Virus genome (UHGV): UHGV-0142298
Strand: one strand, 5' to 3'
Length of the DNA stretch: 37,340 nucleotides
DNA from: a virus
Shown: positions 8,514 to 10,634 of the stretch, in pieces
How positions within the stretch are numbered: position 1 is the first letter of the stretch
Layout: every line of letters begins with the position of its first letter
Notes under the pieces: model-generated
Databases searched by the model: none
What the model was told of the DNA's origin: nothing
What the model saw: the letters and a program-made list of their open reading frames with translations, nothing else
Program-made: the position numbers and the translations under genes

Positions 8514-8729
8514 ATGAAATCCATGGATAAGTTAACAACGGGCATCGCCTACAGCACCTCTGCAGGCAGTGCTGGCTACTGGTTTTTACAGTTGCTCGAT
8601 AAAGTCACGCCCTCACAGTGGGCGGCAATAGGTGTATTGGGTAGTCTGGTATTTGGCATGCTGACGTATCTGACAAACCTTTATTTCAAGATTAAAGAAG
8701 ACAGGCGTAAGGTTGCGAGAAGAGAGTAA
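8514..8729 (+). CDS. essQ: Class II holin (phage 21 S-type pinholin-like)
   Basis: 71 aa from [10 protein letters not shown] with two TM segments and a charged C-terminus ([13 protein letters not shown]); directly upstream of a SAR endolysin. Confidence 0.75.
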
Positions 8730-8733
8730 TCCA

Positions 8734-9285
8734 ATGACTCAAGACTATGAACTGGTTGTGAAAGGAGTTCGCAATTTTGAGAATAAAGTGGCGGTAACTG
8801 TAGCCTTACGGGACAAAAAACACTTTGACGGTGAAATTTTTGACCTGGACATCTCGCTGGACCGTGTTGAAGGTGCCGCGCTGGAGTTTTATGAGGCAGC
8901 AGCCAGAAGGAGCATCAGACAGGTCTTCCTGGATGTTGCTGCCGGGTTATGTGAAGGGGATGAGCAGTCGCCGGAAAAGCGCCCCATAATTTTAGAGGCG
9001 CAGAATGTGTGGATAACCTACAAAGGAAAGCTACCGGGAAGAATTACTGGTTCTCTGAAGACGCCACCGACGGCATTGCGGTCAGAAAAAGATGATATTG
9101 AATCGCCCATTGAAAAACTGGAGGGCAGCGTCGCTGATCTGAATAAAAAATTGTCGGTGCTGATTCCTTCTGAAGATGAAAAAAAACGCCGCGATGAGCA
9201 GTTTGCGGCGTTTTACGATTATTGCATTGAAGTTACTCGCAGGAATTTTGTGAAGATTTTTGAGGAGGGTAAATCTCTTCAGTAA
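8734..9285 (+). CDS. Hypothetical protein inserted between holin and endolysin (YdfR/DUF1327-like N-terminus, extended C-terminus)
   Basis: ORF from MTQDYELVVKGVRNFENK; sits where ydfR lies in Qin-type lysis cassettes but is about 80 aa longer; start may instead be 8713. Confidence 0.45.
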   Translation: MTQDYELVVKGVRNFENKVAVTVALRDKKHFDGEIFDLDISLDRVEGAALEFYEAAARRSIRQVFLDVAAGLCEGDEQSPEKRPIILEAQNVWITYKGKLPGRITGSLKTPPTALRSEKDDIESPIEKLEGSVADLNKKLSVLIPSEDEKKRRDEQFAAFYDYCIEVTRRNFVKIFEEGKSLQ

Positions 9286-9493
9286 GCTTATTGGCGGACG
9301 CTGCAATTAATTCAGGAAGGTCCGCAAGGTCATCTGTCAGTGGATATGATGAAAAATCGGCGGCAGTTCTGTTAAGAAGCGCTTTAACTAATTCCTTTTC
9401 CTTCTCCGGCAACAAGTTGATTAGAGCTACGACTGCTTGCCTGAGTGCGATTAAATCAGCAAAAGTTTGTTTAGGTAGATTTGTGTAATCCAT
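9233..9493 (-). CDS. Hypothetical small protein, convergent with the 8734-9285 gene
   Basis: 86-aa minus-strand ORF inside the lysis cassette, overlapping the 3' end of the upstream gene; no motif; could be spurious. Confidence 0.2.
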   Translation of the reverse strand: MDYTNLPKQTFADLIALRQAVVALINLLPEKEKELVKALLNRTAADFSSYPLTDDLADLPELIAASANKLTEEIYPPQKSSQNSCE

Positions 9494-9606
9494 AGTCGCC
9501 TCTGTGTTTATCAGATTGACATCCTCCTCCCGCCAGTGCCCATCACTGGTGAGGTAAGATTTAACATATCCGGGGATTTGAAGCCGATAAATCCTGATAA
9601 ATATCC

Positions 9607-10140
9607 ATGAACGTAAAAATCAGATACAGCCTGTCGGCCGCTGTTCTGGCACTGATTGCCGCCAGTGCTCCTGCCCCTGACATTCTCGATCAGTTTCTGG
9701 ATGAAAAAGAGGGGAATCACACCACTGCATACCGCGATGGCTCCGGCATATGGACCATCTGTCGGGGAGCAACGATGGTGGACGGTAAACCTGTTATTCC
9801 GGGAATGAAACTGTCGAAGGAAAAATGCGCCCAGGTTAACGCCATTGAGCGGGATAAGGCGCTGGCATGGGTGGAGCGCAATATAAAAGTTCCACTGACC
9901 GAGCCACAGAAAGCCGGTATCGCGTCATTCTGTCCCTATAACATTGGCCCTGGTAAGTGTTTTCCGTCGACGTTTTATAAGCGGCTTAATGCCGGTGATC
10001 GTAAAGGCGCATGCGAGGCGATTCGCTGGTGGATAAAGGACGGTGGACGTGATTGCCGCATTCGTTCAAATAATTGTTACGGTCAGGTTATTCGGCGTGA
10101 CCAGGAGAGTGCATTAACCTGCTGGGGGATAGAACAGTGA
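9607..10140 (+). CDS. rrrQ: SAR endolysin (T4-lysozyme-type muramidase with N-terminal signal-anchor-release domain)
   Basis: 177 aa; hydrophobic Gly/Ala-rich N-terminus ([16 protein letters not shown]) then E...D...T catalytic region ([20 protein letters not shown]); paired with a pinholin. Confidence 0.85.
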
Positions 10141-10634
10141 ATCAGATATTCACGGTGATTTTGCTCGTGTTGGTAGGATTTGTCGTAGGTAATGTCTGGA
10201 GCGACAGAGGATGGCAAAAAAAATGGGCGGAGCGTGATGCTGCCGAATTATCTCAAGAGGTAAATGTCCAATTTGCTGCTCGAATAATTGAACAGGGGCG
10301 AACTATATCCCGTGATGAGGCTGTTAAAGATGCACAACAGAAAGCCGCTGAAATTTCTGCCAGGGCTGCTGATCTGTCTGATAGTGTTAACCAGCTGCGT
10401 GCCGAAGCAACAAAATATGCCATACGCCTTGACGCAGCGCAGCATACCGCAAATCTTGCCGCTGCCGTCAGAGGCAAAACAACCAAAGCCGCCGAAGGAA
10501 TGCTCACCAACATGCTCGGAGATATTGCAGCAGAAGCTCAGCTTTATGCTGAAATTGCTGACAAACGCTACATCGCAGGAGTGACTTGTCAACGGATTTA
10601 TGAATCTTTAAGAGATAAAAAATATCAGATGTAG
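10137..10634 (+). CDS. rzpQ: i-spanin (Rz-like)
   Basis: 165 aa with N-terminal TM helix and coiled-coil periplasmic domain; start overlaps the endolysin stop. Confidence 0.75.
10330..10584 (+). CDS. rzoQ: o-spanin (Rz1-like lipoprotein) embedded in the +1 frame of Rz
   Basis: Lipobox LTSC after a signal peptide ([23 protein letters not shown]), proline-rich mature region; lies entirely within Rz in another frame. Confidence 0.6.

Follow-up and report, generated by a model that had tools for sequence, protein, structure and literature searches.

The virus genome UHGV-0142298, analysed here as a single stretch of 37,340 nucleotides (nt) to which all coordinates refer and which we call the window, carries at 8514–10634 a standard Qin/phage-21-type lysis cassette of a Qin-like lambdoid prophage, with a pinholin, a signal-anchor-release (SAR) endolysin and embedded spanins. 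We think it probable that the interval between the holin (S) and endolysin (R) genes of this cassette holds two genuine accessory genes: a long form of the YdfR/DUF1327 gene and, convergent with it on the minus strand, a gene for a small acidic protein of 86 amino acids (aa), here called ORF86. The cassette and the YdfR family are already known, and both are annotated. New, if modest, are a family of small genes that spans three lineages and keeps a fixed convergent partner with an overlapping 3' end, the mapping of its signals, and the description of the S–R interval as a slot for minus-strand cargo.

The initial annotation of this DNA had listed five open reading frames (ORFs) in the cassette, and the ORF listing and profile searches return all of them at the same coordinates. 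Its anatomy of the cassette and its idea of a lengthened YdfR/DUF1327 gene are upheld, but its proposal that either additional ORF modulates the timing of lysis is left unsupported. The elements of the S–R interval are the following:

8734..9285, plus strand: long-form YdfR/DUF1327 gene, 183 aa (PF07041), its ATG 4 nt past the holin stop
9082..9285, plus strand: coiled-coil module (segC + tail) fused to the DUF1327 core, recognised by homology to a separate 73-aa ORF
9233..9493, minus strand: ORF86, small acidic protein, 86 aa (WP_001557934.1; phrog_2572 matched at 86/86 positions)
9499..9502, minus strand: Shine-Dalgarno sequence GAGG, read from the sequence 5 nt before the ORF86 ATG
9179..9214, minus strand: intrinsic-terminator-like hairpin, beginning 18 nt past the ORF86 stop, inside the DUF1327 codons EKKRRDEQFAAFY
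9563..9602, minus strand: promoter-like block, conserved in lineages A, B and C (see below)
9533..9549, no strand assigned: inverted repeat CCAGTG-CCCAT-CACTGG, in the predicted ORF86 5' leader and at the right-hand junction of the inserted block

A long form of the YdfR/DUF1327 gene

Judged by its sequence, 8734–9285 is an intact long-form YdfR/DUF1327 gene. It lies between class II holin and lysozyme genes and encodes 183 aa when read from the ATG at 8734, or 190 aa from a TTG at 8713. The product matches PF07041 with 143.4 bits (cut-off 25) over residues 1–112 and phrog_2091 from end to end, at 183/183 positions. Alignment to PF07041, to the K-12 Qin gene and to phrog_2091 confirms the earlier suggestion that this ORF is a lengthened version of the small gene found in Qin-type cassettes.

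The protein can be divided into a core (aa 1–80), a linker (aa 81–116) and a coiled-coil module with tail (aa 117–183). An AlphaFold (AF2) model shows three strands and a long helix for aa 5–73, with a predicted local distance difference test (pLDDT) score of 66–85; aa 79–123 score below 50, and two long helices at aa 123–182 are of low confidence. Neither a sequence search of the PDB nor a Foldseek comparison of the model with the PDB (E up to 0.001) gave a match for this protein, and PADLOC returned nothing for it at E up to 1.

In related prophages the genes between holin and endolysin encode 103, 114–116, 169, 171, 176, 180, 183, 196, 211, 263/268 or 296 aa. These length classes are combinations of shared modules, namely the core, the linker 'PEKRPIILEAQ...GSLKTPP', the coiled-coil module 'SEKDDIES...KRRDEQFAAFYDYC..RN' and varied ends. 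The coiled-coil module is, as far as its occurrence in sequences tells, an independent unit. At locus L209, which belongs to lineage C described below, a free-standing 73-aa coiled-coil ORF follows Rz, whose stop it overlaps by 8 nt; over its final 35 residues it has 43% identity with residues 149–183 of the window protein, with the same end point (E 3e-5). The module also occurs without a DUF1327 core directly after the holin, in L091 and L101. The YdfR/DUF1327 family is thus shown to be modular, with a core that is either fused to the coiled-coil module or separate from it.

Two side observations belong here: in L091, L101, L116 and L191 the gene after the holin starts directly with the coiled-coil module, no DUF1327 core preceding it, and L101 has a second, diverged 75-aa ORF resembling the DUF1327 core further downstream.

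The Prokaryotic Genome Annotation Pipeline (PGAP) flags 8734–9069 as an 'incomplete, missing C-terminus' pseudogene, and the initial annotation had named a fused pseudogene as the finding that would speak against its own reading. On this account an insertion bearing ORF86 truncated a ydfR gene, the rest of the 183-aa ORF being chance read-through. Besides the flag, two comparisons would fit: relative to the 114-aa form, 9052–9541 resembles an insertion of ~490 bp, with homology to the short-form 3' end and spacer returning at 9542, and homology to the 296-aa form ends near residue 172 of the window protein. Yet in a codon comparison with the diverged 263-aa and 296-aa forms the extension (residues 117–172) shows a ratio of nonsynonymous to synonymous substitution rates (dN/dS) of 0.26–0.32 against 0.25–0.30 for the core, so that purifying selection on the two is equal. 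The 183-aa architecture moreover forms its own PHROG family, its tail is common to many length classes and homologous to the C-terminus of a free-standing gene, and 26/27 sampled alleles are intact. Among deposited phage genomes, 2H10, PhiR63_1, PhiR12_x and PhiR5_1 show this arrangement too. We therefore regard the flag as an annotation artefact, because the extension is constrained like the core, phrog_2091 is matched in full, nearly all alleles are intact and phage genomes share the arrangement; a disrupted ydfR is highly improbable.

A convergent small gene on the minus strand

The 86-aa minus-strand ORF at 9233–9493 reported in the initial annotation is confirmed, and it overlaps the 3' end of the DUF1327 gene by 53 nt. 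Comparison of its sequences makes it very probable that ORF86 is a real gene, though one less constrained than the lysis genes. Its length alone would be insufficient for this view. What makes it more than a chance ORF is conservation: of the convergent layout, of a frame-specific substitution pattern, of the Shine-Dalgarno site and of full-length homologues.

Direct homologues of ORF86 come almost all from E. coli. A profile search with HMMER against 1.8 billion representative proteins recovered the full-length relatives P0139 (93 aa, E 9e-14) and P0140 (89 aa, E 2e-11), which represent two further lineages. Three other candidates, P0141, P0142 and P0144, were rejected by eye as homologues, two being long repeat proteins and one a low-complexity sequence of odd composition. 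We refer to the lineage of the window's ORF86 as A, and to the P0139/P0140 loci as B and C.

In lineage B, present in 6–11 E. coli genomes, an S21-type holin is followed by a DUF1327 protein of 174 or 243 aa ending in '...MKFLQELKLSQQE', the convergent small gene and then a SAR endolysin. In lineage C, holin and endolysin are of other kinds and are followed by Rz/Rz1, the 73-aa coiled-coil ORF, the convergent small gene and terminase genes; this lineage had no match in 5426 E. coli genomes nor in a search of a phage collection. Common to all three lineages is a small gene convergent with the same coiled-coil tail, the 3' ends overlapping by 53 or 59 nt.

At ~50% aa identity between lineages, a six-frame comparison singles out the ORF86 frame as the best one (identity 0.52, mean BLOSUM62 score 2.36, no stops). 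Nucleotide differences at its codon positions 1/2/3 number 29/19/34, 20/18/31 and 22/19/34, position 2 being the most constrained, as a coding sequence predicts. This pattern favours the ORF86 frame because an opposite ORF would share the third positions and have positions 1 and 2 swapped, which would invert it. A Shine-Dalgarno sequence (GAGG, or AAGGA in lineages B and C) and a start codon coincide in position when the three lineages are aligned.

The protein itself is acidic, with an isoelectric point of 4.6, and its AF2 model is a three-helix bundle (pLDDT 76). The model has no Foldseek neighbour in the PDB or BFVD at E up to 0.001, PADLOC gave no match at E up to 1, and Pfam returned sub-threshold noise alone. 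A DUF1823 (PF08853) label carried by ORF86 in PhiR12 records was rejected, at 12.9 bits against a cut-off of 25 (E 0.13).

Opposite ORF86 lies a 65-aa plus-strand ORF (9291–9488), which starts 5 nt past the DUF1327 stop and is open in the three lineages. Since it lacks a Shine-Dalgarno site and its ends vary across lineages, we treat it as a by-product.

Several observations weigh against ORF86 being a gene under selection. An antisense ORF of 86 aa is unremarkable in length, given that a 114-aa ORF runs antisense within Rz. Inside the E. coli lineage the test of variation is not significant (S=12, N=18, p=0.13; dN/dS ~0.6), with synonymous and nonsynonymous counts that are uninformative owing to scant variation and to third codon positions that coincide with those of the opposite ORF. 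For the same reason, the shared third positions, dN/dS is unable to separate ORF86 from the 65-aa ORF. Alleles damaged by loss of the start or stop or by a nonsense codon make up 3/15 for ORF86, compared with 1/27 for DUF1327 and 0/22 for the endolysin. Finally, insertion sequence (IS) elements interrupt ORF86 at two loci, an IS3 in L009 and an IS3-family element in L110, which means that the gene is dispensable for the host.

Taken to their end, such points would leave ORF86 untranslated, its conservation stemming from the opposite 65-aa ORF, from an antisense or regulatory RNA, or from the hitch-hiking of a recently spread block. The weak within-lineage signal, the antisense ORF that stays open in three lineages and shares third codon positions, and the disrupted alleles would all agree with this; so would the 97–100% identity of the block in most loci, suggesting recent spread, and a consensus scan that yielded no promoter. 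Against it stand the comparisons between lineages, in which the ORF86 frame is best and codon position 2 most conserved, the opposite frame giving the inverted pattern, as well as the start signals kept in place for ORF86 alone and the full-length homologues recovered by HMMER. We consider an untranslated ORF86 quite unlikely.

Candidate transcription signals

The hairpin downstream of ORF86 has a 10-bp stem (AAAACGCCGC / GCGGCGUUUU), a 12-nt loop and a U8 tract whose first four U lie within the stem. The 71-nt stretch that contains it folds with −16.2 kcal/mol (z −2.65). Three diverged lineages retain it, one G-C pair having become A-U by a compensatory change, and pairing reaches 88.6% in the true register as against 39–71% in slid registers. 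In lineage B the stem reads CGCCACC/GGTGGCG, and the compensatory change turns RR..AA of the partner protein into HH..VA. The 296-aa form, which has no minus-strand gene, is also without the 5' arm of the hairpin.

A second conserved element abuts the endolysin gene. On the minus strand the block reads ATTTATCAGG (9602->9593), TTTATC (9591->9586), a 17-nt spacer and TATGTT (9568->9563). Across lineages the pattern is ATATTTATCAGG-NN-TTATC...GG-N-TAT(G/T)(T/G)T, including lineage C, in which no endolysin gene comes after it. TTTATC-17-TATGTT together with the A/T-rich element just upstream can be read as a weak candidate promoter.

A consensus promoter and terminator scan found no sigma-70 site upstream of ORF86 and missed the hairpin, the latter because its loop is 12 nt long. 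Other points also count against these assignments. Covariation in the hairpin amounts to a single pair and is not significant in a shuffle test (195/500), the U-tract is strong in lineage A only and weak in B and C, and the candidate promoter, unreported by the scan, matches 7/12 consensus positions. Other origins are conceivable for the block: it may be what is left of the 3' end of an ancestral DUF1327 gene (...INPDKYP*, which overlaps the endolysin ATG), or it may serve the endolysin as leader or translation-initiation region.

Annotation labels that place 9556–9606 inside a 'YdfR family' coding sequence were rejected, since in O104 this stretch lies past the stop of the 114-aa gene. The stretch is in frame with the O104 114-aa gene and probably represents the 3' end of an older, longer form.

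A slot upstream of the endolysin

The block and the inverted repeat recur in related prophages, where they precede other minus-strand ORFs directly upstream of the endolysin, the repeat CCAGTG-N5-CACTGG being common to loci with different minus-strand cargo genes. These ORFs are:

L091 and L116, ~670–990 of the holin–endolysin interval, minus strand: ORF104/ORF106, 47% identical to each other (phrog_1853)
Among the L091/L101/L116 holin–endolysin intervals, minus strand: ORF105 (phrog_10490), with a weak partial match to PADLOC PDC-S51 (1.3e-5)
L003, 2736–3368, minus strand: ORF210, found in some Stx1a/Stx2a phages

ORF104, ORF106, ORF105 and ORF210 each have their own Shine-Dalgarno site and ATG. 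In pairwise BLASTP comparisons of the cargo ORFs only ORF104 and ORF106 are related to each other, and ORF86 is unrelated to the rest.

What the two accessory genes might do

The only experimental data on the YdfR/DUF1327 family concern K-12 YdfR, whose residues 1–72 bind the catalytic half of RNase E, Rne(1–597), in two-hybrid and pull-down assays and co-purify with RNA (PMC13232886). The N-terminal 72 residues of the window protein are ~85% identical to K-12 YdfR, by a hand count on the alignment. Because this identity covers the RNase E-binding part, we favour, by analogy, an accessory role in RNA metabolism over holin regulation. Overexpression of K-12 YdfR changed few transcripts (PMC13232886), which speaks against such a role, and the link to RNase E is an extrapolation here.

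In the mechanism we propose, the DUF1327 protein would be made from the late lysis transcript as an N-terminal domain, a low-confidence linker and a C-terminal coiled-coil module, and by analogy would be a cytoplasmic late protein that acts on RNase E or RNA, not on the holin. ORF86 would be a moron-type unit, transcribed leftward from the weak promoter-like block that abuts the endolysin start codon. A Shine-Dalgarno site and an ATG of its own would direct the translation of an acidic cytoplasmic protein, modelled as three helices. The ORF86 transcript would terminate at the hairpin and U8 tract within the DUF1327 codons. Expression would be independent of Q, for example in the lysogen, and would be opposed by rightward late transcription running antisense. 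The small gene and the coiled-coil tail are a conserved pair, convergent and overlapping at the 3' ends, which travels from phage to phage as one unit. The core lysis pathway would presumably need neither accessory gene.

For ORF86 our best guess is an accessory protein that is expressed in the lysogen and linked in function to the coiled-coil partner. That ORF86 and the tail are repeatedly inherited together suggests such a link, the embedded terminator alone being an equally possible reason. One could go further and imagine that in pinholin-type cassettes a leftward promoter and leader common to the slot, made up of the conserved block and the CCAGTG...CACTGG hairpin, drive interchangeable small genes (ORF86, ORF104/106, ORF105 and ORF210) that are active in the lysogen and silenced by convergent Q-dependent late transcription, with ORF86 and the coiled-coil tail as an antagonist pair that possibly couples lysogen physiology or defence to late DUF1327 RNA metabolism; we hold this extended scheme to be doubtful.

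Two other accounts of function have to be weighed against the favoured one of a late RNA-metabolism protein and a lysogen-expressed partner. The initial annotation had suspected that either gene modulates the timing of lysis, and accessory timing genes in lysis cassettes are indeed well known. The DUF1327 protein, ORF86 or both would then act on the pinholin or the SAR endolysin like the antiholins and helpers T4 RIII, P1 LydB and P2 LysA/LysB. Both genes do lie within the cassette, the DUF1327 start only 4 nt past the holin stop; the coiled-coil ORF of lineage C overlaps the Rz stop; and a convergent antisense transcript over the S–R junction could conceivably shift the S:R ratio. The products themselves lend no support to the idea: on reading of their sequences neither has a transmembrane or signal segment, both are hydrophilic (grand average of hydropathicity −0.47 and −0.20), and Pfam, PHROGs, PADLOC and NCBIfam assign neither a lysis-regulator or other known function. 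Sequenced phage genomes also carry short forms of the DUF1327 gene, and the experimental data point to RNase E and RNA, all of which makes a timing role unlikely.

Alternatively, the slot would be a cargo site for lysogen-expressed genes of defence, anti-defence or superinfection exclusion, and the link between ORF86 and the tail merely physical, owing to the embedded terminator. In favour of this account, no fewer than four unrelated minus-strand ORFs (ORF86, ORF104/106, ORF105 and ORF210) share the position behind this conserved block and hairpin, ORF105 has a weak partial match to the PADLOC candidate PDC-S51 (1.3e-5), and the orientation against the late genes is like that of lambda bor. 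ORF86 itself finds no match in PADLOC, Pfam or the fold libraries, however, and in lineage C the whole coiled-coil ORF has moved with the small gene, which reaches beyond the terminator. We rate a pure cargo site, too, as unlikely.

Comparison with known systems

The Qin cassette of K-12 (essQ-ydfR-rrrQ-rzpQ/rzoQ) and S21/R21 of phage 21 agree with the window in gene order and in the families of holin, endolysin, Rz and Rz1, and have ydfR between the S and R genes. In K-12 Qin, the ydfR product has 103 aa and the stop codon of the gene overlaps the start of rrrQ, whereas the window gene encodes 183 aa and ends 321 nt before rrrQ, leaving a gap in which the opposite-strand gene lies. Aligned to K-12 Qin, the first ~240 nt agree closely, after which the window has ~560 extra bases before rrrQ. 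The DUF1327 gene of the window is thus not of the K-12 type, with a single domain of ~100–115 aa and a stop abutting the endolysin start. Within the YdfR/DUF1327 family (PF07041; PHROGs 406, 2735, 2091 and 1085) its product shares the strong core match. It falls into the 183-aa class of phrog_2091, unlike the YdfR forms of 103–116 aa, which do without the linker and coiled-coil module.

ORF86 looks closest to a lambdoid moron such as bor, because it has its own Shine-Dalgarno site, a conserved promoter-like block and a hairpin with U8. Morons are said to be extra transcription units of lambdoid phages, reportedly including lambda bor and lom and those of HK97 and HK022. Lambda bor points against late transcription. 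The likeness lies in a small extra gene between late genes, a terminator-like hairpin, a candidate promoter, an orientation against late transcription as in bor, and a slightly lower, moron-like G+C content (0.41–0.43 against 0.46–0.52). ORF86 is also absent from K-12, O104 and 296-aa-form loci that are otherwise collinear. Unlike usual morons, it lies inside the lysis cassette, between holin and endolysin, and overlaps the 3' end of its neighbour by 53 nt, its terminator-like hairpin falls within the codons of that neighbour, and it is always paired with the same coiled-coil tail. T4 RIII, P1 LydB and P2 LysA/LysB are likewise small non-enzymatic genes of lysis cassettes; no sequence or fold similarity was found between them and the window proteins.

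Provided that the minus-strand unit is expressed, an uncharacterised lysogen-active gene would lie hidden in a lysis operon in ~5% of complete E. coli genomes, a gene that annotation pipelines label 'hypothetical' or whose neighbour they mark as a pseudogene. The long DUF1327 forms become tied to the sole experimental lead, the binding of RNase E and RNA. The understanding of pinholin/SAR lysis is unchanged by these findings.

Lysis genes, spread and prophage context

The remaining genes of the cassette are:

8514..8729, plus strand: class II pinholin (essQ / S21 type), 71 aa (PF04971; labelled essQ in identical genomes)
9607..10140, plus strand: SAR endolysin (rrrQ), 177 aa (PF00959, 86 bits; sequence matches to R21/RrrD)
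10137..10634, plus strand: Rz i-spanin (rzpQ), 165 aa, with a hydrophobic N-terminal segment (PF10721 / DUF2514, 132 bits)
10330..10584, plus strand: Rz1 o-spanin lipoprotein (rzoQ), 84 aa, lipobox LTSC (95% identity to K-12 RzoQ)

Holin, SAR endolysin and an Rz gene with embedded Rz1 had been proposed from the sequence, and the matches to PF04971, PF00959 and DUF2514 and the identity to RzoQ bear this out. The pinholin scores 117.1 bits against Phage_holin_2_1 (PF04971; cut-off 26) over residues 5–67. It shows the dual start M1/M4, MKSMDK at 8514–8531, that is, the motif for antiholin and holin forms, and two hydrophobic stretches are visible; by analogy, pinholes would form after the first transmembrane domain exits. 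The endolysin matches solved structures by sequence, R21 in 3HDE (E 4e-16; also 3HDF) and RrrD in 4ZPU (E 8e-16). Its residues 9–24 form an Ala/Gly-rich, weakly hydrophobic N-terminal SAR segment, and the catalytic triad E35/D44/T50 is present, with a spacing that we take to be in line with R21. No obvious Shine-Dalgarno site was seen upstream of the endolysin gene on reading the sequence. Rz1 (10330–10584) lies wholly inside Rz (10137–10634) in the +1 frame, an embedded two-component spanin architecture.

Just before the endolysin, a 24-codon ORF with a GTG start (9536–9610) has its stop codon joined to the endolysin start in an overlapping ATGA. Shorter ydfR alleles contain a homologous sequence in their disused 3' end, and in PhiR12_1 and O104 the frame of this ORF is shut by an upstream TGA.

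Many E. coli chromosomes contain the region 8400–10700 with 100% identity. The whole cassette, counted where at least 80% of the region is found, occurs in 202/5426 complete E. coli genomes, and the block 9070–9606 in 294/5426. RefSeq annotates an identical copy, in order, as essQ, a 'YdfR family' pseudogene, the minus-strand hypothetical protein WP_001557934.1, rrrQ and rzpQ. No NCBIfam model matches any of the five cassette proteins, and an Rfam scan of 7000–12500 (E up to 1) left the S–R interval empty, its sole match being a cspA thermoregulator downstream.

The window lacks 1618 bp (L001 5109–6726) that are present in prophages otherwise 99.98% identical, the junction lying at 6125/6126. 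The missing segment comprises the 3' part of a DUF968 gene, the whole gene of the Q antiterminator and a lipocalin gene; probably the late promoter region has been lost, too. Since the Q gene is deleted, expression of the late operon after induction is doubtful in this prophage, whose late operon and lysis cassette may either be silent or depend wholly on other promoters. For K-12 Qin, an H-NS-associated sigma-70 promoter has been reported upstream of essQ (PMC3946193).

Between the deleted Q region and the holin, where Stx phages have their stx site, cargo genes at 6244–8323 encode a YbgA-like protein, which combines 2-thiouracil desulfurase with DUF1722, and an AraC-family regulator. A plus-strand terminator-like hairpin stands just before essQ (8392–8413). 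After the cassette, the Rfam cspA thermoregulator (10840–11256, 112.8 bits) covers the leader and coding region of a cspI-like cold-shock gene; in K-12, the Qin lysis genes beside a cold-shock gene are reported to be up-regulated in the cold. Further upstream, at 4013–5158, a 381-aa protein joins an XRE-type helix-turn-helix and an ImmA/IrrE (Peptidase_M78) domain, functions that in many prophages are split between a repressor and an anti-repressor protease.

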